Source: Candidatus Sulfotelmatobacter sp.
Lineage (GTDB): Bacteria; Acidobacteriota; Terriglobia; Terriglobales; Acidobacteriaceae
Length of the DNA stretch: 51,220 nucleotides
Direction of reading: 5' to 3'
NCBI GenBank assembly: GCA_049279555.1
Contig: JBAPOI010000396.1
Span: 1-51,220, forward strand
Below are positions 2,496 through 36,348 of the stretch, one piece after another (the first letter of the stretch is position 1; each line of letters starts with the position of its first letter). Below the pieces are notes generated by a model. The model was not told where the DNA came from. It saw only the letters and a program-made list of their open reading frames with translations, and did no database searches. The position numbers were made by a program, and so were the translations under genes.

Positions 2496-3440
2496 TTATA
2501 CGCCGACCGGCTGTTTGCTGCTTACCGGCACGGGATTCAGCCAGCCGTACCGGTCGTTCTTTTCGCCGTGCACGATCGCATAAAACTCTTTCTGAATCGC
2601 CTTAGTGATGGGGCCTATCACGCCATTGCCCACCTTGACTTTGTCGACCGAGCGGATCGGAGTAATCTCAGCGGCCGTGCCGGTAAAGAAGGCTTCGTCG
2701 CAGAGGTAAAGCATCTCCCGCGGAATTATCTGCTCGACGATTGGAATATTCAGATCGCGCGCGATCTGCAGCACCGAATCGCGCGTGATGCCGGGAAGGA
2801 CTGAGCTGCCCGCCGGATTCGTGATCAGTTTGTCGTGTTGCACGACAAAAACATTCTCGCCGGAGCCTTCGCTCACGAAGCCGTTCACGTCGAGCGCAAT
2901 GCCCTCGGCATAACCATTCACGACCGCTTCCATCTTGATAAGCTGCGAGTTCATATAATTGGCGCCAGCCTTCGCCATCACCGGCAGCGTGTTCGGCGCA
3001 AGGCGCGTCCATGAAGAAATGCAGGCGTCGCAACCTTCGCTCTCGCCACCCAGATATTTTCCCCACGACCAATTGATGATGTAAACCTCGGTCGGCGTGT
3101 TGAACGGATTCACTCCCATCTCGCCACAGCCACGCAGAATGATGGGCCGAATATAGCAAGGCCATGCGCCGTTGCTAGCCACGGTTTCGAACATGGCCTT
3201 TACCAACTGGTCGCGAGTGTAGTCGACGTCGATGCGATAAACCTTGGCGGAATTGAGCAGCCGCTGAATGTGATCGTCAGCGCGAAAAATCGCTGGGCGC
3301 GACTGCGGCGCGTAGCAGCGAATCCCCTCGAACACCGAGGAGCCGTAGTGGACCACGTGCGACAATACATGAAGAGTCGCCTTGTCCCAGGGAATGAGCT
3401 TCCCATTGTGCCAGATGCTTTCCAATTTTTCGATCGCCAT
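2496..3440 (-). CDS. ilvE: Branched-chain amino acid aminotransferase
   Basis: 'WHNGKLIPWDKATLHVLSHVVHYGSSVFEGIRCY' and full-length class IV aminotransferase similarity. ATG at 3440 has GGAG six nt upstream. The GTG at 3446 is less likely. Confidence 0.9.
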   Translation of the reverse strand: MAIEKLESIWHNGKLIPWDKATLHVLSHVVHYGSSVFEGIRCYAPQSRPAIFRADDHIQRLLNSAKVYRIDVDYTRDQLVKAMFETVASNGAWPCYIRPIILRGCGEMGVNPFNTPTEVYIINWSWGKYLGGESEGCDACISSWTRLAPNTLPVMAKAGANYMNSQLIKMEAVVNGYAEGIALDVNGFVSEGSGENVFVVQHDKLITNPAGSSVLPGITRDSVLQIARDLNIPIVEQIIPREMLYLCDEAFFTGTAAEITPIRSVDKVKVGNGVIGPITKAIQKEFYAIVHGEKNDRYGWLNPVPVSSKQPVGV

Positions 3441-3556
3441 GAGCACTCCTTCAGCGCGGATTAGAACATTATAGCCGAACGCGGCGAAGCCTCCCCCCCC
3501 AAAGAGTCTGGGATGGGACCATGTGGGGCCTAAGCGTTCGAATGCCGAAGCGACTT

Positions 3557-3862: not shown

Positions 3863-4738
3863 ATGAACCTGCCCCAGAACATGGATATTGAAAAAGATAC
3901 ACCGGCCGATGAGAATTCGTCCGGAATGTCGAGACGCTCGTTTTTCAAACGGGCTACAGTGGTCGGAGCTACAAGTGCAGTCGCGATTGGCGGGCTGGTC
4001 ACGCTGGCTTCGGCGTTAGACAAGGGAGCGAGCACCACCAGCGACGACGAAATCGCGAAAGGCAGTTTGGCGAGTGGAGATCGCCAGATCCTGCTGGCGG
4101 CTGAGATTGCCGAGGCGTTGGCGGTTACCACCTACACCAATATCATCAACACTTCTCCTTTCTTTACCCGGCTGCCAATCGACGATCAGGGCTACCTCGC
4201 GGGTGCGCGGCAGGAGGAGATGTCGCATTATCTGCTGGAGCAGTCGGTGACCGATCAGTTGACGCCATTTACCTCGTTCTACTATCCGTTCAACATGTTT
4301 GCCGATGCGCAGACTACGTTGAACACTCTGGTCACCCTCGAGGACGCGTTCATCGCGGCGTACCTGATTGGCGTGCGGAATTTCAGCACCGGACAACTGC
4401 GAGTAACGGCGGCGCGCATCATGGGCATCGAGAGCGATCACCGGACGCTGGCGCGCGTGCTGGGCCCGGATGTGGCGGCGCAGGATGGCGGGCCGATCAT
4501 GACCATCACCGGCTTTCAGGGAGTGCCGGAAAGCGTTGCTCCTCCGAATAACAATGGATACGAGAGAACTCTGTGCCTGAGCAGGATCGACCAGGCGGTG
4601 AATGCTCTGCTGCCGTTCGTCGATGTCAACGCCGCGCAGGCTGCGGGATTCGATACGTCAAAATCGTTTTCCTTCGAACCATTCAATCCAACTTTGCCAA
4701 ATCCGCTGGGGGATTTCATTTCCTTCAAGGGTTGCTGA
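3863..4738 (+). CDS. Ferritin-like domain protein with twin-arginine (Tat) signal
   Basis: ATG at 3863 follows AGGAG. 'SRRSFFKRATVVGATSAVAIGG' is a Tat motif plus h-region. 'LAAEIAEALAVTTY...EEMSHYLLEQ...LEDAFIAAY...ESDHRTLARV' resembles ferritin-like four-helix metal ligands. Confidence 0.7.
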   Translation: MNLPQNMDIEKDTPADENSSGMSRRSFFKRATVVGATSAVAIGGLVTLASALDKGASTTSDDEIAKGSLASGDRQILLAAEIAEALAVTTYTNIINTSPFFTRLPIDDQGYLAGARQEEMSHYLLEQSVTDQLTPFTSFYYPFNMFADAQTTLNTLVTLEDAFIAAYLIGVRNFSTGQLRVTAARIMGIESDHRTLARVLGPDVAAQDGGPIMTITGFQGVPESVAPPNNNGYERTLCLSRIDQAVNALLPFVDVNAAQAAGFDTSKSFSFEPFNPTLPNPLGDFISFKGC

Positions 4739-4870
4739 ACGAGCTGAGGAGTTGGCGCTGTCCGGCTGGGGCTGCGGGTTCTTCGTGGACTCGCGGCCTT
4801 GCCGGAAGATCGAACGAAAACGGACACCGAAAGAAATTTGAAAGTACCATCGAGAATTCAAGGAGGCTTT

Positions 4871-5044
4871 GTGATTGAAGGATTGTTTCAGCCCATGCAT
4901 CTGATCGTGATCTTCGCCATCGCGCTGCTGGTATTCGGCCCCAAGAAACTGCCTGAGCTTGGCAAGGGATTGGGCGATGGTATACGCGGCTTCAAGGCGG
5001 CGATGAACCCGGGGGAAGAGAAAAAGGACAGCCCGGAGGTCTAG
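4871..5044 (+). CDS. tatA: Twin-arginine translocase subunit TatA/E
   Basis: 'HLIVIFAIALLVFGPKKLPELGKGLGDGIRGFK' is the canonical TatA sequence. GTG at 4871 is preceded by AGGAGG at 4861. Confidence 0.85.
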   Translation: MIEGLFQPMHLIVIFAIALLVFGPKKLPELGKGLGDGIRGFKAAMNPGEEKKDSPEV

Positions 5045-5072
5045 TGCGGCGCGCGCGCCATCGCCACAACTC

Positions 5073-5105
5073 ATGTGGGGACAGCCGCCCCCGGCTGTCC
5101 GGCGG
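5073..5105 (+). repeat. GC-rich hairpin repeat (family D), copy 2
   Basis: atgtgGGGACAGCCGcccCCGGCTGTCCggcgg: a 9-bp perfect stem directly after the tatA stop. It may act as a terminator or RNA stabiliser. Confidence 0.6.
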
Positions 5106-5112
5106 CCCAGAC

Positions 5113-5625
5113 TCACCGGGCCGCAGCTTTTGCCCGGACGCCAGAAATCTTATCGGCCGCGGCCTTCGCCGCTCGAACAGGTGCGGGTTTTCGCGAATCG
5201 AGTAACTCCCACGCTTCTTTGTAGCGCTCATGAACGCTGTCTTCGCGATGCGGACTGAGCACAACCACGTTTTGTCCCATGAGCTTCTTCGCCGGGAAGA
5301 TATACCAGATGTCCTCTCGCAGCAGATAGATGGCGAAGTAATCAATCTGCTTGGTCGTATAAGCTTTGAGTTTGTTGCTGGCCAGCATGCAGCTGTAATT
5401 GTTCCCTTCGCGGCAATCGGTGCCCTTCACCTGCACCCGCTTGAATCGCCCATCCTGTTCGATCCCGACGTCATAGCGAGCCGAGTCTCCCCACGGCTTC
5501 GACACAACGTAACCACGCTTGGCTGCGCGCGTCATAAACAGCAACTCCACCCACTCCCTGCGCTGCTTGTAAGTCTTAAACACTTCCATCCCCGTCGCCG
5601 GAGATTTCTCGCGATTCTTTCCCAA
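5113..5625 (-). CDS. PD-(D/E)XK endonuclease-like protein (group-I-intron-associated PDDEXK_5-like)
   Basis: 'AAKRGYVVSKPWGDSARYDVGIEQDGRFKRVQVKG' matches my recollection of the D...(D/E)xK core of this small nuclease family. Assigned by eye only. Start is 5625 or 5589. Confidence 0.55.
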   Translation of the reverse strand: MGKNREKSPATGMEVFKTYKQRREWVELLFMTRAAKRGYVVSKPWGDSARYDVGIEQDGRFKRVQVKGTDCREGNNYSCMLASNKLKAYTTKQIDYFAIYLLREDIWYIFPAKKLMGQNVVVLSPHREDSVHERYKEAWELLDSRKPAPVRAAKAAADKISGVRAKAAAR

Positions 5626-5697
5626 GACTCACACCTCACAAAGTTTTGCCATTACGAACGAATGCTTTCCAGTCCGCCTCTAAATCTTGTCATTAGG

Positions 5698-5739
5698 TTG
5701 TCATTCCGAACGGGCGCAGTTCAGCCCGGAGGAATCTGC
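5698..5739 (-). repeat. REP-like palindromic element (A/B superfamily, GGAATGACAA-type), inverted orientation
   Basis: TTGTCATTCCGAACGGGCGcagttcaGCCCGGAGGAATCTGC. Matches 7954-7994 and the reverse complement of 8333-8375. Confidence 0.75.
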
Positions 5740-5939
5740 TTTTCGCCGCCAGCGCCATAGCGACGTTTAGCCTATGAGGGAGTCGGAGGTGCACGTGAGA
5801 GCCGTTCGCGGAAGCCTCTTGAGTGGGTAAACATCCTACTACTAGTTTAGTGAGGGGGTGCAAGGTCCGATGTCACACAGGGGGTGTGGAAAAGCTCGAT
5901 ATGGGACGACTGCCGTCGATGCGGCCCTCACCCCTGGTC

Positions 5940-6563
5940 CTACTTTGCCGTGGCGAAACTTCTAATGATCTCCGTAGCATTAGTCAGACCGCGCGCGGTC
6001 AGGGTGTAGCCGGAATCCTTGGCTCCAGCCACCTCAGCAGAAAAGCTCTTCAGGTATGCGGCGAAGTTGGCGGTGTCGAAGGCGTCATAGTGAAGGCACG
6101 CCTCTTTTACCTGCTCGTGCGTCACCCGAGCGACACCGGTGCTTAAGTAAGCCGCTATTCCCTTTAGCAGGAGGACGCTATGCATCCGGTCTTTTTTATT
6201 TTCCCCTGGCACCTTTTTCGCCACCAAGTCAATTTCGTCTACCCCGAGACTAAATAGGGCGGAGAGCCCCGAGGGCGTGAACCCGCTCCTTTTCATCCAC
6301 TTGAGGGCCACTGGACTTATGCCCTCGGAGGCTTCGTTCTCTTCAGGAACGCTGGACCGGACCGAGCCGGCTGGCGGCCTTTCTTCAGCTTCGGAGGGCT
6401 TGGGCTGCTCCTCGTCGCTTAGAGAGGGCAACGCAAGCCTTCGTGAGACGTAATCAAGGACTCGCCTCTGGGCCGCGGGATCGAGTTCTTTCAAGGCATT
6501 GTAAACAGATGTGATCGCGGTTATTTCAGGGTCCGAACTGACCATTGATTTATCAGTCGCCAT
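5940..6563 (-). CDS. Uncharacterised partner protein of the PNP-fold gene, with an acidic/Pro-rich linker and a C-terminal winged-helix-like module
   Basis: ATG at 6563 is preceded by AAGGAGG and lies 15 nt after the upstream stop (6579), consistent with an operon. I recognise no family. The C-terminal ~75 aa align by eye with the N-terminus of the upstream protein. Confidence 0.7.
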   Translation of the reverse strand: MATDKSMVSSDPEITAITSVYNALKELDPAAQRRVLDYVSRRLALPSLSDEEQPKPSEAEERPPAGSVRSSVPEENEASEGISPVALKWMKRSGFTPSGLSALFSLGVDEIDLVAKKVPGENKKDRMHSVLLLKGIAAYLSTGVARVTHEQVKEACLHYDAFDTANFAAYLKSFSAEVAGAKDSGYTLTARGLTNATEIIRSFATAK

Positions 6564-6578
6564 AAAGCCTCCTTACCA

Positions 6579-7700
6579 TTATGCTGTGGGCCACAAGGCC
6601 TCCCATTCAGTCCTTAGGAACTCGACAGTGAACTCGGCTGCGACAAACGCAGCGTATTGCTGCCATGAATCGGACTTGACCGCTGCGAAGTCGCAAACCG
6701 ACTTGAAGGAAACAAAGCGCGGTTTTGGGTCAGGGGACTCGTAGCATGCCCGGTAGACCCCATAGGTTTCCATCTCCACGCCAATCAATTTGCGCCAGTG
6801 GCTTTGTATTTCGAGAATGCGCGATGCATCGTCGATTACCTGGTCGGCCCCTCCGACTGGGCCGATGTGGAGTCGATTGGAGCCCGCTGGAAGACGACCC
6901 TTCCAACGGCTGCGGATGGCGGCAAACATTGCGTGATCTGCGCGGTACTTTTGAAGGACGCTGCGAAGTCGGGGATTCAGCCCGATAGGGTATGGATCGG
7001 GGAGGAACTCTCTGATGCCGTCAGAGAACGCTACCTTCCCAGAGTTGTAGTCCACGCTCGGGTCCGCCACGAGAACATCGCCAAAGAGCTTGTTGCCCTC
7101 GCGCGTCCCGGCCGCGATGCCGATCATTGCGACCAGACGGGGTCGAAACTGTAGGACAAGCTGAGTGGTGGCTATGGCTGCAGCTGTAAGTCCCATTGAT
7201 GTCGACGTCGTCGCGACGACGCGGAGTTTTTTCCCAGCGGAGGTGCCGAGGGTCGCCTCGCGATAGACATGCGCGAAGCGTGGGCTGCCCACAACAGTCC
7301 AGGCGCTCTGTCCGCCGATGGCCTTGATCACGGCCTCGAGTTCCGGATTTTCTAGTGCACAGATAATGCCGATATCCGTAGAGAAGTCGGCTTCGGTCGT
7401 GCTCGTTGCTAGCTCCAATCCGCTCGTGGCCCGCAGCTGTTCCACGCCCTTCTGCGTAAGGGACCAGCGCAGCGGCGGCCCTTTTTCCGCCGGCTCGACA
7501 TAGGCTCCGTAGGCGCGGAGGCTGGCATTGACGTTCTTGGGCGTTTTCTTGCCGAGGTGGAGGCCGAGCATGTCGATCACTTGTTTGGCGGTCACGGGTG
7601 ATGAGTGCGCGTTGAGGCAAAAGAGTGCTGCGAGAATCGCGTACTGGTCGGAGCGCTCCCGGGGCTTAACAGCGCTCAGGATTGTAGATAGCGTCAGCAT
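6579..7700 (-). CDS. Winged-helix domain fused to a nucleoside phosphorylase/nucleosidase (PNP_UDP_1/MTAN-like) domain
   Basis: C-terminal motifs 'MIGIAAGT', 'GDVLVAD', 'GGADQV' and 'IGVEMETYG' match the MTAN/PNP fold. The N-terminal ~90 aa look like a wHTH ('VTAKQVIDMLG...LRWSLTQKG'). Met at 7700 is chosen as start because the 36-aa extension to 7808 looks non-coding. Confidence 0.8.
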   Translation of the reverse strand: MLTLSTILSAVKPRERSDQYAILAALFCLNAHSSPVTAKQVIDMLGLHLGKKTPKNVNASLRAYGAYVEPAEKGPPLRWSLTQKGVEQLRATSGLELATSTTEADFSTDIGIICALENPELEAVIKAIGGQSAWTVVGSPRFAHVYREATLGTSAGKKLRVVATTSTSMGLTAAAIATTQLVLQFRPRLVAMIGIAAGTREGNKLFGDVLVADPSVDYNSGKVAFSDGIREFLPDPYPIGLNPRLRSVLQKYRADHAMFAAIRSRWKGRLPAGSNRLHIGPVGGADQVIDDASRILEIQSHWRKLIGVEMETYGVYRACYESPDPKPRFVSFKSVCDFAAVKSDSWQQYAAFVAAEFTVEFLRTEWEALWPTA

Positions 7701-7843
7701 GGCGGCAGGGAAAAAGCCACAGCATAGCCGCGGCCCGTCACAACCGGGTTCCTTTTTACTCTTATGGGGGAGGGAATACCAAGAACTTTCATGGTGGCGA
7801 GGTGGCACGGGGAGGGGACGGGTACCTGCCTATGGCTGGGACA

Positions 7844-7888
7844 GCAGATTCCTCCTACTTCGCTTCGCTCAGGCGTCGGAATGACAAG
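7844..7888 (+). repeat. REP-like palindromic element (A/B superfamily)
   Basis: GCAGATTCCTCctacttcgcttcgctcaggcgtCGGAATGACAAG. Both termini are shared with 8333-8375. Confidence 0.7.
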
Positions 7889-7953
7889 AAGTTTTGCACA
7901 GTGAAAGTGGTGACGAGTGACGCTGCGTTTCGTTGGCCCAACCCCTTAGAGTT

Positions 7954-7994
7954 TTGTCATTCCGAACGGGCGGTGTTTGCCCGGAGGAATCTGC
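7954..7994 (-). repeat. REP-like palindromic element, left flank of the GIY-YIG gene
   Basis: TTGTCATTCCGAACGGGCGgtgtttGCCCGGAGGAATCTGC. Ends 17 nt before the GIY-YIG ATG. Confidence 0.75.
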
Positions 7995-8011
7995 TTTCCT
8001 TTGGAGTGGCA

Positions 8012-8383
8012 ATGCCGCGTGAGCGCACCTACTACGTGTACATCATGGCAAGTAAGAGCCGCGTGGTGTATGTCGGCGTTACAGGATTTCTTATGGCGCG
8101 GGTACTTCGGCATCGGGCTGGGGAGGGCGGACAGTTCACGCGGAAGTATCAAGTGCATCGACTAGTCTATTTTTCGTCGTTTCGAAATGTCGGCGACGCG
8201 ATCACGCGCGAGACCGAGATCAAGGGATGGCGGCGGGAGAAAAAAGTAGCATTGATTGAAGAGAGAAACCCGACTTGGGAAGACTTGGCGGAAGGATGGG
8301 GCGAGGCCGCCGTGATGACGGTGTCGAGGGCAGCAGATTCCTCACCGGGCTTGCGCCCGGTTCGGAATGACAAAGGCCTTTAG
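8012..8383 (+). CDS. GIY-YIG nuclease family protein (small COG2827/YhbQ-like)
   Basis: 'YYVYIMASKSRVVYVGVT...RHR...RETEIKGWRREKK' carries the GIY/YIG, Arg and Glu motifs. ATG at 8012 follows GGAG. The last ~15 codons read through the right-hand repeat. Confidence 0.8.
   Translation: MPRERTYYVYIMASKSRVVYVGVTGFLMARVLRHRAGEGGQFTRKYQVHRLVYFSSFRNVGDAITRETEIKGWRREKKVALIEERNPTWEDLAEGWGEAAVMTVSRAADSSPGLRPVRNDKGL
8333..8375 (+). repeat. REP-like palindromic element, right flank of the GIY-YIG gene (inverted relative to 7954-7994)
   Basis: GCAGATTCCTCACCGGGCttgcGCCCGGTTCGGAATGACAAAGG. Its reverse complement aligns with 7954-7994. Confidence 0.75.
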
Positions 8384-10173
8384 TGGCTTGCAACTGCAGG
8401 CGCGGGAACAGCGGCTGGCGTTAGGCTGGCTTTTACTGTCACGGCGGGTAATTCATCTCCGCGAAAATACTTTTCCTTCGCGGCCTTCATCTCTGGCATG
8501 GCTTCGTAGGGCTTCGAGTAGTCGTTAGCGGCGTTCCAGAACAAGAATCCAATGCCGCCTTTTTCTTTGGCGGTAGCGACTTGCACCTTGATGTATTCCG
8601 GGGAGTAAGTTTTTGTGCGCCAGTGGAAGGCTTGCAGCCACGGGCGAATTACCACGCCGCTGGACCTGTTTCCGTCCGGATGCGTGATCAGTTCGAAACG
8701 CTCCATGGATTCGCCGATGAAGTGCTCGGGCGCGTCGCCGGGGTGCGCGATGTTATCCATGCCGAAGAAGTGAGAGGGATAAATCATGGGCGAGAGCACG
8801 TCGCAATATTTCGCCATGCCCACGATGTCTTGTCCCGTGTGCGAGAGATCAACCGAGCGCTGCCAGGCCATCACGCCAAAAACGTCAAGCGAGAGCAGAA
8901 CGCCGGTGGGATGCAGTTCGCCGTAAGCCTTCTTCAAAAAGCCGGTGATGACGTCGGAGCGTTGCGGACCGGCGGGAGCGGCTTCGGGATGCTTCGCAGC
9001 GGCAACGTGCTTCGCGCCGTGATGCTTGGAATCTGGATGCTTCGGATCTGAGTTGCCGGGTGTCGGTTCAGCGTCGGCGGCGGCATCTGCCGTGATGGTT
9101 CCGCCTTGCTTCGCTTCGGCGGGACGGGCGAGAGCCTGCCCTGAGCTTGCCGAAGGGCGCCCGTCTCCACATGGTACATCGTTCTTCTCAGCGCAAGTGC
9201 CGGACTGAAACACGAACCCGGCATCTTTCTGGTCGCCTTCAGCAGGGAAGCGGACATAGTCGAACTGAATTTCGTCGGCGCCGGATTGGGCTACAAACTT
9301 GGCCAGCGCGATGTCATATTCCTGAACTTTGGGTTGCGAGGGATCGGTCCAGACCAGCTTGCCATTTTCGCGCCACGGCTGGCCGGTGCGCTTCGACTTC
9401 ACCGCGAGCTCGGGATGCTCGACCACCAGGCGCTCGTCGCGGAAGATGGCGATGCGGGCGATGGCGTGCATGTTCTCGGAATGCAGGAAGTGGACAAACT
9501 TCGGCAGGTCGTGAATGTAAACCTGGTGCTTGCCGAGCAGCGGGTGTTCGAAGGGAATGGTGACGCTGCCGTCGGAATCCTTGATATCGAAGACGACGGC
9601 ATTGCCGCCCACTTCGCGCCAGTGGCGGATGATGCGGAGTCCGTGATCGCTGGCGGCCATGATGCCGGTGAGGTAAATGGCGCGAACTTCAAAATCCCTG
9701 GCGATGGGAACGGTCTTTTCGACGATGGGCTCAGGCAAAATTCCGGGGATTGTAATCTGCTCGCCATTCTTGAGGATGTTGCCGGTACGATTTCCATTCA
9801 CTTTGCGAATGGCGTCGGCCAACTCAGAAGAAGTGAGATAGGAAGTCTGATGCAGAAATTGGCGCGCGACCGCTGGAATGCTTTCGCCGCGCTTCGCCGT
9901 GTAGATATCGGTCGGCCCGACGACTGAAGATTTAGCGGGCGGAATGTCGGCGGGCTTCACAGCTTCGGCGACGGTTGCGCTTGCCGGGTGGAGCTGCGCG
10001 GTATTTTTTGGCGCGGTCTGGGCTTGGGCTGCGAGAGCGGAAGACGGTCGCGGACTCAGGCGTAGCGCGGCTACGCCATACAGAAGGCAGGCTACTGCGA
10101 TGATGTTGAAAAGAGACGAGCGACGCACAAAATCCTCCAGGCAGAGCGACCTATTCCGGATGCTATCCCGCAC
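8380..10173 (-). CDS. Membrane-anchored LysM-like plus putative glycoside hydrolase (DUF4015-like) protein
   Basis: N-terminal TM segment. LysM-like 'YTAKRGESIPAVARQF...NGEQITIPG'. TIM-barrel-like 'AIYLTGIMAASDHG...NAVVFDIKDSDG...IQFDYVRFP'. Contains a His/Lys/Ala-rich low-complexity insert. Confidence 0.7.
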   Translation of the reverse strand: MRDSIRNRSLCLEDFVRRSSLFNIIAVACLLYGVAALRLSPRPSSALAAQAQTAPKNTAQLHPASATVAEAVKPADIPPAKSSVVGPTDIYTAKRGESIPAVARQFLHQTSYLTSSELADAIRKVNGNRTGNILKNGEQITIPGILPEPIVEKTVPIARDFEVRAIYLTGIMAASDHGLRIIRHWREVGGNAVVFDIKDSDGSVTIPFEHPLLGKHQVYIHDLPKFVHFLHSENMHAIARIAIFRDERLVVEHPELAVKSKRTGQPWRENGKLVWTDPSQPKVQEYDIALAKFVAQSGADEIQFDYVRFPAEGDQKDAGFVFQSGTCAEKNDVPCGDGRPSASSGQALARPAEAKQGGTITADAAADAEPTPGNSDPKHPDSKHHGAKHVAAAKHPEAAPAGPQRSDVITGFLKKAYGELHPTGVLLSLDVFGVMAWQRSVDLSHTGQDIVGMAKYCDVLSPMIYPSHFFGMDNIAHPGDAPEHFIGESMERFELITHPDGNRSSGVVIRPWLQAFHWRTKTYSPEYIKVQVATAKEKGGIGFLFWNAANDYSKPYEAMPEMKAAKEKYFRGDELPAVTVKASLTPAAVPAPAVASH

Positions 10174-10653
10174 CTACCCGCCCCGCCTAGTTACTCCCGG
10201 TCATCTCCCCCCTGTCCATGTCCGCCAACCATTGCGGCGACTGAGTCAGAAATGTGGTTCGCATACGGGGGTCCGCGGTTCATTAGAACCAAGGCATGGC
10301 CAGGGCTCGTCTGGCGGCCATCGACAGCGACTCGGTACATGCCCTCCATCCGTGCGCAAACAATTTCTCTTCCTCACTCTTAACTTTCCACCGGGTTCTG
10401 TTCTAATATCGTCGCCTGTCCCCTAACTCCTGTCGATGCAGGGTTTTCGCTTTGCCGTACCCGGGTCGATTCCGTGGCCAGAAGCTTGCTTATTCCCATA
10501 CACCACGGACGCTACATCGGCTCTGGCGAATGCAGGTTCTGGCTGACAAATTTTGTCACCTGCGGGATGTGGCAGCCAAGATGAGAGTCCGGGGAAACGC
10601 AGACAATAGGGCGCAGGATGCGACCCGGGAACAGGAAAGCGGAACGCCACTTT

Positions 10654-11817
10654 ATGAGAACAAACCTCGCTACCGTACTCGACCCGAACCGCCGCAGCAG
10701 CGATGCTGGGGAGTTTGAAGCCGCGCTGCGCCGCCGAATTGTGGGCCAGGACCAGGCGGTGGAAAAGGTCGCAGAGATTTACCAGATGTTCCTGGCTGGG
10801 CTGAACGCTCCGGGACGCCCAGTCGGCAACCTGCTGTTTCTGGGGCCGACCGGTTCCGGAAAAACCCGCGTGGTGGAAGCCATGGCGGAGTCGCTCTTCG
10901 GCGATGCGCGCGCCTGCATCAAGATCGATTGCGCCGAGTTTCAGCACTCGCATGAAATTGCCAAGCTGATTGGTTCGCCTCCGGGATACCTCGGACATCG
11001 AGAGACTCATCCGCTGTTGACGCAGGAAGCGTTGAACCAGTGGTTCACCGAGAAGCTGAAGCTCTCGATTCTTCTCTTCGACGAAATCGAAAAAGCTTCG
11101 GACTCGCTCTGGCAGCTGCTGCTCGGCATTCTCGACAAGGCGACCCTGACACTGGGCGACAACCGCCGTGTCGATCTTTCGCAGTGCATCATCATCCTGA
11201 CTTCGAACTTGGGTGCCAGCGAGATGACTAATCTGGTGGATGGCGGCTTCGGCTTCGCTCCCAAGGCAGTGGAAGTCGATAATAATTTCGACGACAAGAT
11301 TCAGCGCACCGCGGTGGAAGCGGCGCGGCGCAAATTTACGCCGGAGTTTATGAACCGCATCGATAAGACTGTGGTCTTCAAGACTCTGCGCGACGAGCAT
11401 CTGTCGCAGATTCTCGAAATCGAACTTGGCATGGTGCAGCAGCGGGTTTTGATGGCCGCGGGAACGAACCAGTTTGTGTTCAATTGCACCACGGCTGCGA
11501 AACAGTTCCTGCTGAAAGAAGGCACTGACCCGCGTTACGGCGCGCGTCACCTAAAGCGTGCGATCGAACGGCATCTCGTGTTCCCGCTGGCGAACCTGGT
11601 GGCAACTGCGCAGGTGAAACTTGGCGACTTTGTGCGCGTGGATATGGCTTCCGAAAATCAGATGATTTTTGTGAAGGAAGCGGAAAATACTATGGCCCCG
11701 GTTCTGCTGGAACGTTACGGAGCCGCTGCCGCGAACATGCCCGCTGCCCGCGCGGCACGCACCGCAGCCAACAACCGCCGCGATCTTGGGGCCAGCCCCA
11801 CCGCGGAGAGCAAATAA
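10654..11817 (+). CDS. Stand-alone AAA+ ATPase resembling the ClpA/ClpB D2 module
   Basis: 'IVGQDQAV...LLFLGPTGSGKT' (Walker A), 'ILLFDEIEKA' (Walker B) and 'GARHLKRAIE' (sensor 2/D2-small). There is no N-domain, D1 or middle domain. ATG at 10654. Confidence 0.85.
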   Translation: MRTNLATVLDPNRRSSDAGEFEAALRRRIVGQDQAVEKVAEIYQMFLAGLNAPGRPVGNLLFLGPTGSGKTRVVEAMAESLFGDARACIKIDCAEFQHSHEIAKLIGSPPGYLGHRETHPLLTQEALNQWFTEKLKLSILLFDEIEKASDSLWQLLLGILDKATLTLGDNRRVDLSQCIIILTSNLGASEMTNLVDGGFGFAPKAVEVDNNFDDKIQRTAVEAARRKFTPEFMNRIDKTVVFKTLRDEHLSQILEIELGMVQQRVLMAAGTNQFVFNCTTAAKQFLLKEGTDPRYGARHLKRAIERHLVFPLANLVATAQVKLGDFVRVDMASENQMIFVKEAENTMAPVLLERYGAAAANMPAARAARTAANNRRDLGASPTAESK

Positions 11818-27020: not shown

Positions 27021-27107
27021 GCCATCGTGGCGGAATTGGCAGACGCGCATGGTTCAGGTCCATGTACTCGCGAGGGTGTGGGGGTTCGAGTCCCTTCGAT
27101 GGCACCA
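27021..27107 (+). tRNA. tRNA-Leu (anticodon CAG), CCA encoded
   Basis: Acceptor GCCATCG/CGATGGC. Anticodon stem CATGG/CCATG with loop TTCAGGT. Long variable arm. TTCGAGT T-loop. Terminal ACCA. Confidence 0.9.
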
Positions 27108-27889: not shown

Positions 27890-28813
27890 ATGCTGATCGC
27901 AAGAGGTTCTTTGAATGTTATCTTCCGAGTTGCACTCGTGCTGCTGTTTCTGTGTGGGGTAGGCGCAGCGCAGAAGCTCACGATTACCTTCGACGACCTG
28001 CCGCTGAACGGCGAACTGCCACCGAGCGTGACGCGCACGGAGACCGCCAGGAACGTGGTGGCAATTCTGAAGAAGCGGCATGTGCCTCCGGCGTATGGAT
28101 TTGTGAATGCGAAGAAGCTCGAAGGGAATCTCGATGGGGCTGAGGCTTTAAAGGTGTGGGCGGCGGCGGAGCCGGTGGGAAATCATACTTATTCGCACAT
28201 GGACCTCGAGAAGAATACTCCCGAGGCATTCGAGAGCGACATTGAGGAGAACGAGCCAGTGCTCGAACTGCTCCAGGCGAAGGACGACTGGCACTGGTTG
28301 CGGTATCCGTATCTGCATGAGGGAGACACGGTGGAGAAGCGGCGTGCAGTGCGGGCTTACCTGAAGACGCATGGCTACAGGATTGCGCAGGTTACGCTCG
28401 ACTGGGAAGACTACCTGTGGAATTTTGCATATGCGAGATGCGCCGCGAAAAACGATCAGAAATCGATTGCGTGGCTGCGGTCGAGTTATTTGAGCACGGC
28501 GTCGGAATTTCTTGATCTTGGCCGGGCGCAGGCGAAGCTGATTTACGGGCGCGACATCAGTTATGTGTTGCTGTTGCATCTGGGAGCGTTCAGCAGCACC
28601 ATTCTGCCGGAGGCGCTGGATCTGCTGCACAAAAAGGGGTTTAAGCTGGTGACGTTGCAGGAAGCGGAGAGCGACGCCGCGTATGAAGACGACCCGGATG
28701 CCGCTTTGCACGACGCCGGCACGTTCCTGGACCAGTGGATGCAAGTGAAGCAGATCAAATATCCCGAGCACGAGGACAAGCCTTACAAACAGCTGGAAAG
28801 CGCCTGCCAGTAG
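27890..28813 (+). CDS. Polysaccharide deacetylase (NodB-homology) family protein, secreted
   Basis: Signal peptide, then 'LTITFDDLP' and 'GNHTYSHMDL' motifs. ATG at 27890 chosen. Confidence 0.85.
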   Translation: MLIARGSLNVIFRVALVLLFLCGVGAAQKLTITFDDLPLNGELPPSVTRTETARNVVAILKKRHVPPAYGFVNAKKLEGNLDGAEALKVWAAAEPVGNHTYSHMDLEKNTPEAFESDIEENEPVLELLQAKDDWHWLRYPYLHEGDTVEKRRAVRAYLKTHGYRIAQVTLDWEDYLWNFAYARCAAKNDQKSIAWLRSSYLSTASEFLDLGRAQAKLIYGRDISYVLLLHLGAFSSTILPEALDLLHKKGFKLVTLQEAESDAAYEDDPDAALHDAGTFLDQWMQVKQIKYPEHEDKPYKQLESACQ

Positions 28814-28864
28814 CGCCGTCTCGATTGGCGAATCATTCCTTCCCGTATAATTCAGGGACCGTTT

Positions 28865-29674
28865 ATGCCCGTGTCCCTTGATCAGATTGTCCACTCGACG
28901 CGCGGGAAAGTTACTGCAGCGAAGCGAACGGCCGATGTGCGTGAACTGGGGCGGCGGGCGGAACGGCATGTGCCGCGCGGGTTTCGGCGGGCTTTGGAAG
29001 AAAAGAGCAAAGCCGGAATAGCTGTGATTGCCGAGTTGAAGAAGGCGTCGCCGTCGAAGGGATTGATCCGGGCGGAGTTTTGCGTGGAGCAGTTGGCGAA
29101 GGAACTGGAAGCGGCTGGAGCCGCGGCGCTTTCGGTGCTGACGGATCAGGAGTTCTTTCAGGGATCGCTCGGGAACTTGCGGAACGCGTCGGCGGCAGTG
29201 AAGATTCCCTGTCTGCGCAAAGATTTTATTGTGGATGAATTCCAGTTGCTGGAGGCGCGGGCGTATTCGGCCGATGCGGTTTTGCTGATTGTGGCAGCTT
29301 TGACGCAGACGGAGTTGACGGCGCTGGCTCTGGGTGCGCGTGCCCGCGGGCTGGATGTTTTGTGCGAAGTGCATGACGAATCAGAGTTGCAGCGGGCGTT
29401 GGATGCGGACTGCGATTTGATTGGAGTGAACACGCGCGATCTGCGGACGTTCAAAGTGGATCCTGAGACGGCGTTCCGGTTGGCGGAGCGGCTTCCGAAG
29501 AATGTGGTGCGAGTGGCGGAGAGTGGGATTCGGTCGGGAGAAGATATTGCGCGGCGGCGAGATGCGGGGTATCAGGCGGTTTTGATTGGGGAGACGCTGA
29601 TGCGGGCGGTTTCGCCCGGCGAAACTTTGCGGGAGCTCGTTGCGAGTACTCGGTACCCAGTGCCCAGTACCTAG
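28865..29674 (+). CDS. trpC: Indole-3-glycerol phosphate synthase
   Basis: 'IAELKKASPSKGLIR', 'CLRKDFIVDEFQ', 'LIGVNTRDLRTF'. Confidence 0.95.
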   Translation: MPVSLDQIVHSTRGKVTAAKRTADVRELGRRAERHVPRGFRRALEEKSKAGIAVIAELKKASPSKGLIRAEFCVEQLAKELEAAGAAALSVLTDQEFFQGSLGNLRNASAAVKIPCLRKDFIVDEFQLLEARAYSADAVLLIVAALTQTELTALALGARARGLDVLCEVHDESELQRALDADCDLIGVNTRDLRTFKVDPETAFRLAERLPKNVVRVAESGIRSGEDIARRRDAGYQAVLIGETLMRAVSPGETLRELVASTRYPVPST

Positions 29675-29740
29675 CCTTCGCAGTGAACGAGGGATCGCAA
29701 CGGTCAATCCAGAAAGCCGCGCGGGCGACGCGCGATGCAA

Positions 29741-29803
29741 GGGATCCTTCTACTGTGGTTTTGCTTCGCTGTTGCGAAGCAAAATCCTCGCTCAGGATGA
29801 CAA
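29741..29803 (+). repeat. REP-like element (family A) in the trpC-trpF spacer
   Basis: GGGATCCTTCtACTGtGGTTTTGCTTCGCtgttGCGAAGCAAAATCCTCGCTCAGGATGACAA. Confidence 0.8.
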
Positions 29804-29824
29804 CTGACTGGATGGCCGTGTGAG

Positions 29825-30502
29825 ATGACTTGGGTGAAGATTTGCGGGATAACGAATTTGGAGGATGCGCTTGTGGCCGTTGAGGCCGGGGCGGATGCGG
29901 TGGGGTTTGTATTTTATGAGAAAAGTCCACGGAATATTGGCGTGGAGGCGGCGCGGGAGATTATTGAGAAGCTGCCGAAGGGCGTGGAGAAGGTTGGAGT
30001 TTTTGTTGATCTGGAAGCTCAGGGTATCCGCGAGATCGTGGTGAAGGCTGGGCTGACGGCAGTGCAGTTGCATGGCAAATCATCGTTGGATAGCGTGCTT
30101 GTCGACTCTCGCCCCGCTATTGAGAGTGTGAAAGTGGCAAAATTAATTGCGACGATTCCGGATTACGCGTTACACCATGGCACCGGGGTGGCGCTCAGCG
30201 AGCGGGTTCGCGAGAAAGCCTTCGCAATCTTGATCGATGCACAGGTGAATGGCGAAAGTGGAGGGACGGGAACGAAGTTCGACTGGGAGGCTAGTAGAGA
30301 TATGGTGCAGATGCTCGGCTTCGTCGTCCCGGTGATAGTGGCTGGGGGACTTACCCCTGGTGATGTGGCCGAGGCGATGAGGACATTTCAACCTTTTGGA
30401 GTGGATGTAGTTTCGGGAGTAGAAGCGAAACCTGGGAAGAAAGATCCGGAGAAGGTGCGGGCGTTTGTGCGGGCGGTGCAGGACGCGGAGAGGAGTTTGT
30501 GA
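29825..30502 (+). CDS. trpF: Phosphoribosylanthranilate isomerase
   Basis: '[27 protein letters not shown]'. Full-length TrpF-like. Confidence 0.9.
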
Positions 30503-30542
30503 GCGTGGCGACGGCGAAGGTCCAACTCAGCGCAAGAAAGAG

Positions 30543-30604
30543 TAGGTCCCTCGACTCCGCATCACCTTTGCTACGCAAAGATGATGCTCCGCTCGGGATG
30601 ACAA
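30543..30604 (+). repeat. REP-like element (family A, diverged) in the trpF-trpB spacer
   Basis: TAGGTCCCTCGACTCCGCatcacctttgctacgcaaagatgatGCTCCGCTCGGGATGACAA. Its ATG (30598) is the probable trpB start. Confidence 0.65.
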
Positions 30605-31797
30605 GCAAGAGGAATGACGTGGATGTTCCCGGGCGGTTTGGCATTTATGGCGGGCGGTATGTGCCGGAGACTTTGATGGCGGCGCTCGAGGAATTGGAGC
30701 GCGAGTACGAAAGGGCGAAGCGGGATCCAAAATTTCAGAAACGGCTGGACGAGTTGTTGCGAACTTATGCGGGGCGTCCCACGGCGCTGACGTTTGCGCG
30801 AAGACTGACGCAGAAGTTGGGTGGGGCAAAGATTTATTTGAAGCGCGAGGATTTGTTGCACACCGGGGCGCACAAGATTAATAACTGCCTGGGGCAGGCG
30901 CTGCTGGTGGAGCGCATGGGAAAGCGGCGCGTGATTGCCGAGACTGGAGCGGGCCAGCATGGCGTGGCTACGGCTACGGTTTGCGCTCTGCTCGGTTTTG
31001 AATGCGTGGTCTACATGGGCACCGAGGACATGCGGCGGCAAGAATTGAATGTCTTCCGCATGCGGTTGCTGGGCGCGGAAGTTCGCGGCGTGGAGTCGGG
31101 ATCGAGGACGTTGAAGGATGCGATCAATGAAGCCATGCGCGATTGGGTGACGAATGTAAGAACTACGCATTATTTGTTAGGAAGTGTGCTGGGAGCGCAT
31201 CCATATCCGACGATGGTGAGAGATTTTCATCGCGTGATTGGGCGGGAGGCGCGGGCGCAGATTTTGAAGGCCGAGGGAAAGCTTCCGGCGGCGGTGATTG
31301 CATGTGTAGGCGGCGGATCGAATGCGATTGGAATTTTCTACGAGTTCATAAAGGACAAGAAAGTTCGCTTGATCGGAGTGGAGGCCGGCGGACGCGGCGA
31401 AGCGCTGGGAGAACATGCGGCGCGGTTTCGCGGAGGGTCGCCGGGCGTTTTGCAAGGCACATTTTCTTACGTTTTGCAGGATTCCGCCGGACAGATTGCG
31501 TTGACCCATTCGGTTTCTGCGGGGTTGGATTATCCCTCGATTGGGCCGGAACACGCGGCGTTGAAAGACGTGGGTAGAGCTGAGTACGTTTCCGCATCGG
31601 ATGCAGAGGCGTTGGAGGCAACTACGTTATTGGCGCGGACGGAGGGAATCATTCCGGCTCTCGAATCGGCGCACGCGGTGGCGGAAGTGATGAAACGCGC
31701 GCCTCGAATGAAGAAGTCTGACGTGGTGATCGTGAATGTTTCCGGACGAGGCGATAAGGATATCGGGATTATGCGGGAGAGTTTGAAATTGGATTGA
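30598..31797 (+). CDS. trpB: Tryptophan synthase beta chain
   Basis: '[15 protein letters not shown]', 'HTGAHKINN', 'GGGSNAIG'. The alternative GTG at 30499 overlaps the trpF stop but would translate the repeat. Confidence 0.95.
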
Positions 31798-31892
31798 ATC
31801 GGCGGAATTCTCGGAAGCGCAGTGGGAAGCCCCACGAAAACTGGGGCCCGCGTATGAACTCCTATTGAGGCCCGCAGGCAGTGAGAGCGAAA

Positions 31893-31954
31893 GGGATTCT
31901 TCGACTGCGGTTACGCTCGCATCCGCGAAGCGCAACCTTCGCTCAGAATGACAA
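31893..31954 (+). repeat. REP-like element (family A) in the trpB-trpA spacer
   Basis: GGGATTCTTCGACTGCGGTTacgctcgcatccgcgaagcgcaaCCTTCGCTCAGAATGACAA. Confidence 0.8.
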
Positions 31955-32733
31955 AAATGCCTTTATCTTTTTATAAGAAGCCGGGGCTGGTGGTGTATGT
32001 GACATGCGGCGATCCGGACCTCGCGACAACACGCGAGATCGTGCTGGCTGCGATTGAGGCGGGCGCGGATGTGATTGAGTTGGGGGTGCCGTTCAGTGAT
32101 CCGGTGGCGGATGGTCCGGTGATTCAGCGGGCCAGTGAGCGGGCGCTGAAACACGGTACATGCCTGGCACAGGTGTTGACGCTGGCGGCGGAAGTTCGGC
32201 AGCATGCGCAGTCAACCGGGATCGTTGTGTTTTCGTATTTGAATCCGATCTTGCGCATGGGGATTGAGAAGTTTTGTGCAGTGGCGCGGCATGCGGGAGT
32301 CGACGGCGTGCTGCTAACAGATTTGCCGGTGGAAGAAGCGGGGCCGTACTTGCGGACGATGAAGGCGAACGATTTGGCGCCGGTGTTTCTGGCGGCGCCG
32401 ACCAGTCCGGATGCCCGGTTGAAACGGATCGCAGAAGCGTCACGAGGATTTGTTTACGCGGTGTCGCGCACCGGGGTGACCGGGACGCGGCAGCAACTGG
32501 CGGACGATGCGCAGAAACTGGTTAAGCGGCTGCGGCGCGTGACGAAACTGCCAGTCGCGGTTGGCTTTGGGATTTCGAATGCGGAGCAGTTTGCGGAGGT
32601 CGGTAAGTTTGCGGATGCGGTGGTAGTGGGAAGCGCGGTTGTGGAGACGATTGAGCGGAATCGAGGACGGGAAGCGCAGGCAGTGGGGGAATTTGTAAGA
32701 AAGCTGACAGGTGGACGTTCGGTGATGGTCTAG
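31948..32733 (+). CDS. trpA: Tryptophan synthase alpha chain
   Basis: 'VTCGDPD', 'ELGVPFSDPVADGPVIQ', 'GFGIS'. Start is 31948 (inside the repeat) or 31957. Confidence 0.95.
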   Translation: MTKMPLSFYKKPGLVVYVTCGDPDLATTREIVLAAIEAGADVIELGVPFSDPVADGPVIQRASERALKHGTCLAQVLTLAAEVRQHAQSTGIVVFSYLNPILRMGIEKFCAVARHAGVDGVLLTDLPVEEAGPYLRTMKANDLAPVFLAAPTSPDARLKRIAEASRGFVYAVSRTGVTGTRQQLADDAQKLVKRLRRVTKLPVAVGFGISNAEQFAEVGKFADAVVVGSAVVETIERNRGREAQAVGEFVRKLTGGRSVMV

Positions 32734-32828
32734 GCATTTGTGAATCCCACGCTTGCGCAACGGACGCGCAAGGATGGAGCACCGCCGTCAGCAAAGGTCG
32801 AGGAACACCGAGGCAGTACAGAATGGTA

Positions 32829-32891
32829 GGGATCCTTCGACTGCGGTTGTGCTTCGCGTTCGCGAAGCGCAATCCTCGCTCAGGATGACAA
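32829..32891 (+). repeat. REP-like element (family A) in the trpA-chorismate mutase spacer
   Basis: GGGATCCTTCGACTGCGGTTGTGCTTCGCGttcGCGAAGCGCAATCCTCGCTCAGGATGACAA. Confidence 0.8.
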
Positions 32892-32908
32892 GTTGGGATA
32901 AAGATTTC

Positions 32909-33229
32909 ATGGACATCGCAGATTGGCGGGAGAAGATCGATGAGCTTGACCGGCGGCTGGTGGAGTTGCTGAGTGAGCGGGCGCGGGCTGCGGTGGAGAT
33001 CGGACGCTTGAAGCGGGATACGAATTTGCCGATTTACGAACCGCAGCGGGAGCGGGTTGTGTTTGAGAATGTGCAGAAGCTGAATCCGGGACCGCTTCCG
33101 GCGCAGGATCTGGTTCGAATTTTTGAGCGAATTATGGATGTAATGCGCAATATTCAGAAGGAAGGAATCGGGCCGACGGCGGAGACTGCAAAAACGGAGA
33201 CAGAGTTGGATTCGGAAGTGAATGATTGA
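32909..33229 (+). CDS. Chorismate mutase (AroQ class)
   Basis: 'WREKIDELDRRLVELLSERARAAVEIGRLKRDTNLPIYEPQRE'. Start is 32909, or 32885 inside the repeat. Confidence 0.85.
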   Translation: MDIADWREKIDELDRRLVELLSERARAAVEIGRLKRDTNLPIYEPQRERVVFENVQKLNPGPLPAQDLVRIFERIMDVMRNIQKEGIGPTAETAKTETELDSEVND

Positions 33230-33269
33230 AGCAAGCGGGAAAAAGCAGCGGCGCGGTACTCGAAATCAA

Positions 33270-33298
33270 GGTTCCTCGCTGCGCTCGGAATGGCAAAG
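33270..33298 (+). repeat. Possible degenerate family A remnant
   Basis: GGTTCCTCGCTGCGCTCGGAATGGCAAAG resembles the 3' half of the element. Confidence 0.3.
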
Positions 33299-33349
33299 AG
33301 TTGGTTTGAGCTAGAAGCCGGAAGCCAAGGACGAGAAGCAGAGATTCTT

Positions 33350-34369
33350 ATGATTGTAGCGATGCAGGAAATGGCGGATGAGGCGTTGGTGCAGCAGGTG
33401 ATTGAGCACCTGGTGAAGATGGGTTTTGAAGTGCACCGCTCGACTGGGGCCCGGCAAACCGTGCTGGGCGCGGTGGGAGCGGTGATCGATTTTGACATCC
33501 GCAACCTTGAGCTGTTGCCGGGGGTGCAGGCGGTCCATCGCATCAGTTCTCCGTACAAACTGGCGGGAAAAAGTTTTCGTCCAGAGGGAACGATCGTCAA
33601 GCTGGCGGATGGAATCAGCGTTGGCGGAAACGAAGTGGTGGTGATGGCGGGACCGTGCTCGGTGGAGTCGCGGGAGCAGCTTTTTTCGACGGCCGAAATC
33701 GTGGCGAAGGCCGGCGGGCGCGTGCTGCGAGGCGGAGCGTTCAAGCCGCGAAGTTCTCCTTATTCATTTCAAGGGCACGGAGAAGACGCTCTCAAGTTGC
33801 TGCGCGAGGCTGGGGAGAAGTTCGAGCTGCTCATCATCAGCGAGGTGATGGAGATCTCGCAGATTCCGATGATGCTGCCCTACGTGGATATTTTGCAGGT
33901 GGGGGCGCGCAACATGCAGAATTTCAATCTGCTGCGCGAGCTGGGAAAAGTGCGTAAGCCGGTGCTACTGAAACGCGGAATCGCCGCGACACTCGAAGAG
34001 TTGCTGCTCTCGGCGGAATATATTATGGCGGGCGGAAATTATGACGTGATCCTGTGCGAGCGGGGGATCCGAACGTTTGAGACCTACACGCGGAACACGA
34101 TGGACATTTCGGCAATCCCGATTATCCACAAGTTGTCACATCTTCCGATGACGGCCGATCCTTCGCACGGGACGGGACGGCGCGACAAGGTTCCGCCGAT
34201 GGCGCGAGCTTCCGTGGCCGCCGGGGCGGATGCGCTGCTGATCGAAGTGCATTGCGACCCGAACAAAGCATGGTCCGATGGCGCACAGTCGCTGTTTCCC
34301 GAGCAGTTCGAGAAACTGATGGACGAGTTGCGGATGATCGCGCCGGCAGTGGGAAGAAAAATTGGGTAA
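33350..34369 (+). CDS. 3-deoxy-7-phosphoheptulonate (DAHP) synthase, type I-beta, with N-terminal ferredoxin-like regulatory domain
   Basis: 'VVVMAGPCSVESREQ', 'GAFKPRSSPYSFQG', 'DPSHGTGRRD'. N-terminal ~70-aa ACT/FL-like domain. ATG at 33350. Confidence 0.9.
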   Translation: MIVAMQEMADEALVQQVIEHLVKMGFEVHRSTGARQTVLGAVGAVIDFDIRNLELLPGVQAVHRISSPYKLAGKSFRPEGTIVKLADGISVGGNEVVVMAGPCSVESREQLFSTAEIVAKAGGRVLRGGAFKPRSSPYSFQGHGEDALKLLREAGEKFELLIISEVMEISQIPMMLPYVDILQVGARNMQNFNLLRELGKVRKPVLLKRGIAATLEELLLSAEYIMAGGNYDVILCERGIRTFETYTRNTMDISAIPIIHKLSHLPMTADPSHGTGRRDKVPPMARASVAAGADALLIEVHCDPNKAWSDGAQSLFPEQFEKLMDELRMIAPAVGRKIG

Positions 34370-34386
34370 GTGGCCGAATTTGTTAA

Positions 34387-35397: not shown

Positions 35398-35398
35398 A

Positions 35399-36265: not shown

Positions 36266-36348
36266 TTGTTTATTGCTGATTTCTGATTGTTGATTGAAGA
36301 CATCGCCTATCGATAATCGGAAATCAACCATTTCTCCTGGCCTTTGAA
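36265..36348. repeat. Family C AT-rich inverted-repeat element, copy 2
   Basis: aattgtttattgctgatttctgattgttgattgaag ... aatcggaaatcaacc ... ggcctttgaatttc. Lies directly after the tyrA stop. Confidence 0.6.

Follow-up and report, generated by a model that had tools for sequence, protein, structure and literature searches.

The question raised by the locus studied here is whether a nucleosidase-fold protein that carries an additional N-terminal domain, and whose gene is closely followed by that of a small protein with no nameable family, serves metabolism or conflict. The locus lies at positions 5940-7700 of a 51,220-nucleotide stretch of DNA from Candidatus Sulfotelmatobacter sp. (Acidobacteriota; contig JBAPOI010000396.1), hereafter the window, and an earlier note, made from the letters of this DNA, had singled it out as a candidate undescribed defence or conflict system. 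We refer to the product of the first gene as the effector and to that of the second as the partner. By sequence comparison, the nucleosidase domain of the effector belongs with the immune ATP nucleosidases of the Cap17/DtcC clade, and the two genes lie next to each other in all informative loci, which represent at least eight phyla. Our preferred reading, held with moderate confidence, is that the pair is a conflict module of the toxin-antitoxin or abortive-infection kind, in which an ATP-nucleosidase effector would be restrained by an inhibitory partner.

A conserved head-to-tail gene pair

The effector gene occupies 6579-7700 on the minus strand and encodes 373 residues, from an ATG start to a TAA stop at 6579-6581. 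The partner gene (5940-6563, minus strand, 207 residues) lies head-to-tail downstream of it, and the two open reading frames (ORFs) are separated by a 15-nt spacer (6564-6578, minus strand), which holds an AAGGAGG Shine-Dalgarno (SD) sequence at 6568-6574, before the ATG of the partner. The spacing, the SD sequence and the length of the partner agree with what the earlier note had reported. Its figure of 374 residues for the effector is one too many, but the motifs that it had quoted from the nucleosidase domain (MIGIAAGT, GDVLVAD and IGVEMETYG) are present and are nearly invariant in 40 homologues. An in-frame upstream GTG at 7808 would give an effector of 409 residues; this start is unlikely, because the best 120 homologues, about 373 residues long, share the same initial methionine and align from MLTLS. 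Each protein has hundreds of homologues at 50-90% identity, and the pair therefore does not consist of chance ORFs. A sigma-70 scan of 5000-8500 found no promoter-like site, and Rfam returned no RNA family near the cassette.

A scan with the partner alignment, in which each GTDB species was represented by a single genome (about 185,000 in all), yielded 38 loci. In these loci and in metagenome contigs, wherever upstream DNA exists and the partner is not fragmentary, the gene immediately upstream of the partner gene is that of the effector, and the lengths of the longest contigs of the effector homologues and of the partner homologues match pairwise. Co-occurrence of the two genes elsewhere, which had been set beforehand as a check, is thus found in every informative locus. 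The hosts include Acidobacteriota, Planctomycetota, Nitrospirota, Bacteroidota, Verrucomicrobiota, Alpha- and Betaproteobacteria, and Actinomycetota, and the identity between any two effectors is 58-87%, even across phyla. Pairwise identities of effector and partner co-vary with r = 0.69 (300 pairs, 25 distinct loci), a value that is descriptive only, since the locus pairs are not independent. All-against-all clustering of the flanking ORFs revealed no third conserved gene: only the effector and partner families recur, while PDDEXK_5 proteins appear in only 4-5 loci. The pair is a co-inherited unit with horizontal spread, and it has what is asked of a toxin-antitoxin module, namely two co-transcribed genes, conserved as a pair and mobile between genomes.

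Several copies in metagenome-assembled genomes are disrupted. Specifically, frameshifts occur in the copies of loci L007, L034, L039 and L041, an insertion of about 0.9 kb (about 4052-4971) falls within the winged-helix region of the effector gene in L018, and L038, L040 and L042 hold partner fragments only.

Relationship of the nucleosidase domain

Residues 110-344 of the effector match Pfam PNP_UDP_1 (E 4.8e-15; 56 bits, cut-off 25.1), and the complete nucleosidase domain, supported by alignment with DtcC and Escherichia coli MtnN and by Foldseek, spans residues 108-373 (6582-7379, minus strand). Foldseek with the effector model retrieves MTAN structures (E about 1e-10, TM-score about 0.65 relative to the target), and a profile search against the PDB gives an MTAN-type match (E 9e-8). 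In PADLOC, the best match is PDC-M60C (E 4e-68, 228 bits), of whose 407 profile positions only the PNP half (141-399) is covered, and the Cap17-type profile 'Effector PN-superfamily' scores 67 bits (E 2.6e-19). In NCBIfam, by comparison, the effector scores 57.5 bits against a cut-off of 169 for MTAN and 27.8 against 124.7 for futalosine hydrolase; a further score in the same MTAN/MqnB equivalog test is 32.4 against 73.8 bits, and the cut-off for DeoD is likewise not reached.

In BLASTP comparisons, the effector matches three plasmid-borne DtcCs with 32-37% identity (about 150 bits, E about 1e-45), the DtcC of Vibrio alginolyticus that was tested experimentally (sequence from bioRxiv 10.1101/2023.01.24.525353) at 89 bits (E 3e-23, 29% identity), the available partial sequence of Cap17 at 47 bits (E 2e-9, 32% over 105 residues), and E. 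coli MtnN at 28-41 bits (E 1e-3 to 5e-8, 24% identity). The plasmid DtcCs emerged as the top matches in a search of sequenced plasmids with the effector, where they are labelled 'response regulator' genes of Klebsiella, Agrobacterium and Arcobacter. These genes sit in three-gene operons encoding proteins of about 1,170, about 157 and about 405 residues, which match PDC-M60A, PDC-M60B and PDC-M60C over their full length. By these matches, PDC-M60A stands for the kinase gene of Detocs-type operons, PDC-M60B for the receiver gene and PDC-M60C for the receiver-PNP gene.

The catalytic residues of the effector are intact. In particular, the catalytic-type aspartate D337 (codon 6690-6692, minus strand) aligns with DtcC D353 and MtnN D197, E120 aligns with MtnN E12, and M310 and E311 align with MtnN M173 and E174; all of these residues are invariant in 40 effector homologues. 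A D[YWF]xSGK insertion is common to the effector and the DtcCs and is absent from E. coli MtnN. In DtcC, the D353A substitution abolishes defence, as does mutation of D472, the equivalent catalytic aspartate of Cap17 (bioRxiv 10.1101/2023.01.24.525353). Because of the PADLOC and BLASTP scores, the catalytic residues and the DtcC-type insertion, we place the domain with the Cap17/DtcC-clade immune ATP nucleosidases rather than with MTAN or MqnB, and from this relationship we infer that its substrate is ATP.

The same comparisons bear on a metabolic reading, in which the effector would be a nucleoside-salvage enzyme acting on methylthioadenosine, S-adenosylhomocysteine (SAH) or a related compound, its winged helix would turn it into a transcription factor that responds to metabolites, and the second gene would encode a co-regulator. 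The effector does share its fold, its catalytic residues and the positions of the catalytic triad with MtnN and MqnB, its neighbours are mostly housekeeping genes, and in one locus (L045) the genes immediately upstream of the pair encode S-adenosylmethionine (SAM) synthetase and SAH hydrolase. However, its identity to these enzymes is about 20%, it bears two extra insertions and the N-terminal winged helix, it falls far below the curated MTAN and MqnB cut-offs, and it resembles DtcC far more than MtnN. Furthermore, the pair is found in only 38 of the species representatives scanned, at unrelated chromosomal sites with variable contexts, outside any salvage or menaquinone operon; no metabolic operon partner recurs and no conserved operator was found. 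We rejected an MTAN or MqnB identity on these grounds and regard the metabolic reading as very improbable. A grouping with MqnB or MTAN, which had been named beforehand as an outcome against a defensive role, is not what the comparisons return.

Differences from Detocs and CBASS

Detocs consists of DtcA (TPR and histidine kinase), DtcB (receiver) and DtcC (receiver and PNP) (bioRxiv 10.1101/2023.01.24.525353), and is listed as the candidate PDC-M60 in PADLOC-DB 2.0.0. The likeness to the present pair lies in the effector: its nucleosidase domain has DtcC as the closest relative found, with the same catalytic aspartate, glutamate and Met-Glu pair and the same insertion, and in both proteins a regulatory domain lies N-terminal to the PNP domain. 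The remainder of the system is lacking. No DtcA-type gene adjoins the pair in the window or in about 40 loci, PDC-M60A matching only the plasmid controls; the effector has no Response_reg match, and its PDC-M60C match begins only at profile position 141; the partner matches neither PDC-M60B nor Response_reg. There is thus no histidine kinase, no buffer receiver and no receiver domain on the effector, in which a predicted winged helix takes the place of the receiver, and the sole companion is an unrelated protein of 207 residues. The pair is therefore not a Detocs system, and activation by phosphotransfer is excluded, since neither a kinase nor receivers are present.

Cap17, the TPALS-PNP effector of type III CBASS, falls in the same immune PNP clade. 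Unlike Cap17, however, the effector lacks a TPALS/SLOG sensor of cyclic oligonucleotides, and neither a CD-NTase gene nor any other CBASS gene lies nearby; nor were Avs, pAgo or other sensor genes found near the pair. The earlier note's proposal that the architecture is not a named system holds in PADLOC 2.0 and in the searchable literature, where no account of a winged-helix-PNP protein accompanied by this partner came to light. What is new is the two-gene architecture and the uncharacterised partner family; the type of effector is known from immunity, and the pair is not categorically new.

The N-terminal domain of the effector and the partner protein

AlphaFold2 predicts for the effector (mean predicted local distance difference test score, pLDDT, 80) an N-terminal domain of three helices (residues 19-29, 39-53 and 58-64), a beta-hairpin wing (strands 69-73 and 79-82) and a linker helix (84-94), after which comes the MTAN-like alpha/beta domain. 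The topology is that of a winged helix, predicted for residues 1-100 (7401-7700, minus strand) with a pLDDT of 79-95. The domain is strongly conserved among homologues, for example in the segments GPPLRW and LT.KG. No helix-turn-helix (HTH) model of Pfam is significant for it, the nearest being HTH_20 in 2/40 members at E 0.069, and the winged-helix label is accordingly one of model topology. An N-terminal winged HTH fused to the PNP domain, as the earlier note had it, is thus borne out by the predicted layout but not by any HTH profile.

The partner is built of three parts. A two-helix hairpin (residues 12-43; 6435-6530, minus strand; AlphaFold2 helices 12-25 and 29-43, pLDDT 76-80) is conserved in the alignment with the consensus DPEI.AI..VY.ALK.L.P.AQ.RVL.YV and is kept even in a distant sister branch of the family. 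It is followed by an acidic, proline-rich linker (residues 49-76; 6336-6419, minus strand), which is predicted to be disordered (pLDDT below 50) and varies in length and sequence among homologues. The C-terminal domain (residues 78-207; 5943-6332, minus strand; pLDDT 80-88) is conserved in the alignment, its invariant residues including W89, R92, R126, C156, H158, Y159, R191 and G192. In the model (mean pLDDT 73), this domain ends in a winged-helix-like unit.

The partner has 561 homologues, and an exhaustive profile search extends the family to 611 clusters at 50% identity, nearly all of them stand-alone proteins of 180-250 residues. Searches of Pfam, PADLOC, NCBIfam, PHROGs and the PDB gave no sequence match, in agreement with the earlier description of a protein with an acidic, proline-rich linker and no nameable family. 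That description had also called the partner a winged-HTH protein; the model supports this at the C-terminus, but Foldseek returns weak winged-helix matches only (best E 0.088). Homology between the winged helices of effector and partner is not demonstrable: hhalign places the two in register at a non-significant level (P 0.017, probability 2.7%), and BLASTP finds no match between them.

Translation signals and proposed mechanism

The gap between the two genes ranges from -19 to +30 nt in 33 distinct loci, and the translation signals of the genes differ. An SD-like site of at least 4 nt precedes the partner gene in 27/33 loci and one of at least 5 nt in 17/33, the exceptions being mostly Bacteroidota, whereas the effector gene has a site of at least 4 nt in 5/29 loci and one of at least 5 nt in 0/29. 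This asymmetry predicts that more partner than effector is made, as would be expected for a dangerous enzyme under restraint; it is also compatible with a sensor role.

On the reading of a restrained ATP nucleosidase, the active effector would cleave the N-glycosidic bond of ATP or dATP to give adenine together with (deoxy)ribose-5'-triphosphate, and the depletion of ATP would starve the cell or the phage. The winged helix would serve as the regulatory N-terminus of the effector, replacing the receiver of DtcC or the cyclic-nucleotide sensor of Cap17. The partner would be the cognate regulator, co-transcribed with the effector and translated more efficiently, and, like an antitoxin, would bind the effector and hold it inactive; the hairpin or the acidic linker may make this contact. 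Loss, titration or alteration of the partner in the course of infection or stress would set the effector free. An alternative route to release might start from an invader cue, for example foreign DNA: engaged by it, the winged helices would drive the PNP domains into an active oligomer, the form in which PNP/MTAN enzymes act. In this scheme we infer what the effector cleaves, that it is toxic, that the partner inhibits it, and what sets it free.

A different role for the partner, that of a sensor or activator which recognises a phage cue through its C-terminal domain and switches on the nucleosidase, as DtcA does for DtcC, is unlikely in our assessment, although several features speak for it. 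Known PNP effectors are switched on by a separate sensing component, and the C-terminal domain is the most conserved part of the partner and is shared with a sister branch that pairs with a different protein, as would be expected if one sensor served exchangeable effectors. However, a strong SD site on the partner gene and none on the effector gene fit an excess of inhibitor no less well, the linker, acidic and disordered, is reminiscent of labile antitoxin regions, and the partner has no enzymatic or NTPase domain through which a signal could be transduced.

Genomic context and the toxin-antitoxin comparison

A survey of the neighbourhood took in 150 ORFs from 37 loci, those closest to the pair (within about 1.9 kb); it is crude, being ORF-based and limited to Pfam. 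It returned 151 Pfam families, none recurring more than three times and most of them housekeeping, among them chaperonin, serine hydroxymethyltransferase, ribonucleotide reductase, DnaB and a tRNA synthetase. Accessory matches are isolated, with a single XhoI and PDDEXK_5 twice. Individual loci do have notable and often accessory neighbours, a point in favour of a conflict module: SNase and an acetyltransferase in L001 (Nitrospira), a tyrosine integrase in L004 (Planctomycetota), a PemK toxin in L005, a PhdYeFM-PIN pair in L044, and PDDEXK_5 in L045. The pair behaves as a solitary cassette, like many toxin-antitoxin modules, and not as a resident of defence islands.

This solitary habit bears on a reading in which the pair is a plain chromosomal toxin-antitoxin module of the addiction or stress type, a selfish cassette with a nucleosidase toxin and no dedicated anti-phage role. 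In agreement with it, the cassette stands among housekeeping genes outside defence islands, its phyletic spread is patchy with high identity, its genes are tightly spaced with asymmetric translation signals, and other such pairs adjoin it in some loci (PemK in L005, PhdYeFM-PIN in L044). Reversed-order type II modules exist, for example HigBA and MqsRA, and the present pair resembles them in having two tight genes with the toxin-like one first, a patchy spread, a solitary chromosomal position, and a partner with a DNA-binding-type fold and a disordered segment. It differs from them in that the putative toxin is a nucleotide nucleosidase rather than an RNase and itself bears a winged helix, and in that no autoregulatory operator was detected at the pair. 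Moreover, every characterised member of this PNP clade acts in phage defence, and the partner was found on no sequenced plasmid, where addiction modules are common. We judge a purely addictive or stress-related role to be quite improbable; it overlaps the reading that we prefer, because toxin-antitoxin and abortive-infection systems are not sharply separated.

Several observations weigh against a defensive conflict module. No enrichment beside known defence genes, an association that Rousset et al. give as a statistic for the clade, was seen in the Pfam survey of the 37 loci; since the neighbours are mostly housekeeping and no defence family recurs, the defence-island argument is unsupported, and the case made in the earlier note is weakened to that extent. 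No conserved DNA motif that could serve as a winged-helix operator is visible in the upstream regions of 34 loci, and a conserved operator is unsupported because no motif is shared upstream of the cassette. The partner was not found in sequenced plasmids, phages or IMG/VR, and carriage by a mobile element was therefore rejected; the effector's plasmid matches are all Detocs DtcCs and not orthologues, and its only phage match is marginal (E 4e-4). The SAM synthetase and SAH hydrolase genes of L045 (5886-8468) are a possible metabolic hint, which recurs nowhere else. Finally, the disrupted copies in several metagenome-assembled genomes may reflect either decay of a costly module or assembly error.

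Other features of the window surround the cassette. A small PD-(D/E)XK_5 gene, homing-endonuclease-like, lies at 5113-5625 (minus strand) and a small GIY-YIG nuclease gene at 7802-8383 (plus strand), so that the two flank the pair; L022 and L045 are among the few other loci with a PDDEXK_5 gene a short way downstream of the pair, a weak recurrence. An element of about 45 nt (TTGTCATTCCGAACGGGCG...GCCCGGAGGAATCTGCTTT) forms direct repeats at 5698-5742 and 7954-7997, 2,256 nt apart, which also flank the cassette, and its partial inverted copies at 7839-7855, 8327-8343 and 8357-8374 bracket the GIY-YIG ORF. All copies within the window fall between 5.7 and 8.4 kb, and none was found in 135 other loci; the repeats therefore belong to this genome and not to the cassette. 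The flanking nucleases and repeats, which the earlier note had read as signs of an accessory origin, are local features outside the conserved unit.

The same note had proposed an insertion between tatA and a cell-wall gene. This does not hold: in related Acidobacteria (L044 and L007) the pair occupies the same interval, from DUF4015 to an ilvE-type aminotransferase, so that within this lineage it is inherited and not a fresh insertion. The DUF4015, ClpB-like AAA_2 and class-IV aminotransferase genes (window 8380-11817 and 2496-3446) keep their arrangement in the soil acidobacterial locus L044. The small genes within the interval vary (tatA, a 326-residue ORF and the nucleases in the window; PhdYeFM-PIN in L044), and the interval is a local variable spot. 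Elsewhere in the window, a strongly positive GC skew (0.17-0.34) is sustained over about 10 kb (28000-38000), far above the rest; Rfam gave no rRNA or other RNA family in that region, and a tRNA-Leu(CAG) gene lies at 27021-27107.

A distant branch of partner relatives

The partner family has a distant sister branch, which aligns with it over the full length (HHalign probability 100%, E 3e-39) and has the same three-part build. Its genes do not adjoin a PNP gene. Instead, a gene for a protein of about 255 residues lies next to the sister-branch gene, downstream of it, in 56/85 metagenome loci, with a gap of -8 to +7 nt in 50/56, so that the operon couples a relative of the partner translationally with this protein (L050 7001-8365, L052 7001-8374 and 54 more metagenome loci within L056-L135). 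The protein has invariant residues R108, R111 and H115 (IRNNRGVGH; R-x2-R-x3-H), and its C-terminus reads as winged-helix-like; comparison of that C-terminus with the winged helix of either the effector or the partner is not significant. Searches of Pfam, NCBIfam, PADLOC and the PDB with the family gave no significant match, its weak matches being to Cas3_HD in 7/29 members (best E 1.6e-4) and one to Abi_C.

Further genes accompany partner-like genes. In 3/4 long contigs, a gene matching PF27235 (AF_1680) lies near the sister-branch gene (L052 8489-9232, L054 8468-8794 and L055 7418-8146); this match is precomputed, and the local copy of Pfam gave none for that gene. In L054 (6560-8079) and L055 (5978-7431), the partner-like gene is flanked by genes for proteins of 120-161 residues with winged-helix-like C-termini and no database match, and partner-like genes of further subsets have other small neighbours.

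A shared small protein with differing neighbours is a modular pattern typical of conflict systems. We regard this modularity as supportive and not decisive for a conflict role, because the neighbour of about 255 residues lacks an assigned family. More broadly, and as a tentative possibility only, the partner family might be a common sensor or regulator of minimal two-gene immune systems with exchangeable winged-helix effectors, triggered through winged-helix contacts or the sensing of invader DNA, and operating with neither second messengers, phosphorelay nor NTPases. If so, the effectors may be the ATP nucleosidase here and the R-x2-R-x3-H protein in the sister branch.

Implications

ATP-nucleosidase (PNP) effectors are attached to many immune sensors, including those of CBASS, Detocs, Avs/NLR, pAgo and DRT8. 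To these the cassette would add a minimal architecture, in which a PNP effector with a winged-helix regulatory domain is accompanied by one small protein of an unannotated family, itself widespread in soil bacteria. Should the pair prove to be a plain toxin-antitoxin module, it would still be one with a nucleotide-nucleosidase toxin. If it is defensive, it would offer a compact and easily cloned model for how a PNP effector can be restrained and released independently of second messengers, phosphorelay and STAND NTPases, and it would give a function to several hundred protein clusters of one family, as well as to a sister operon with a different putative effector.

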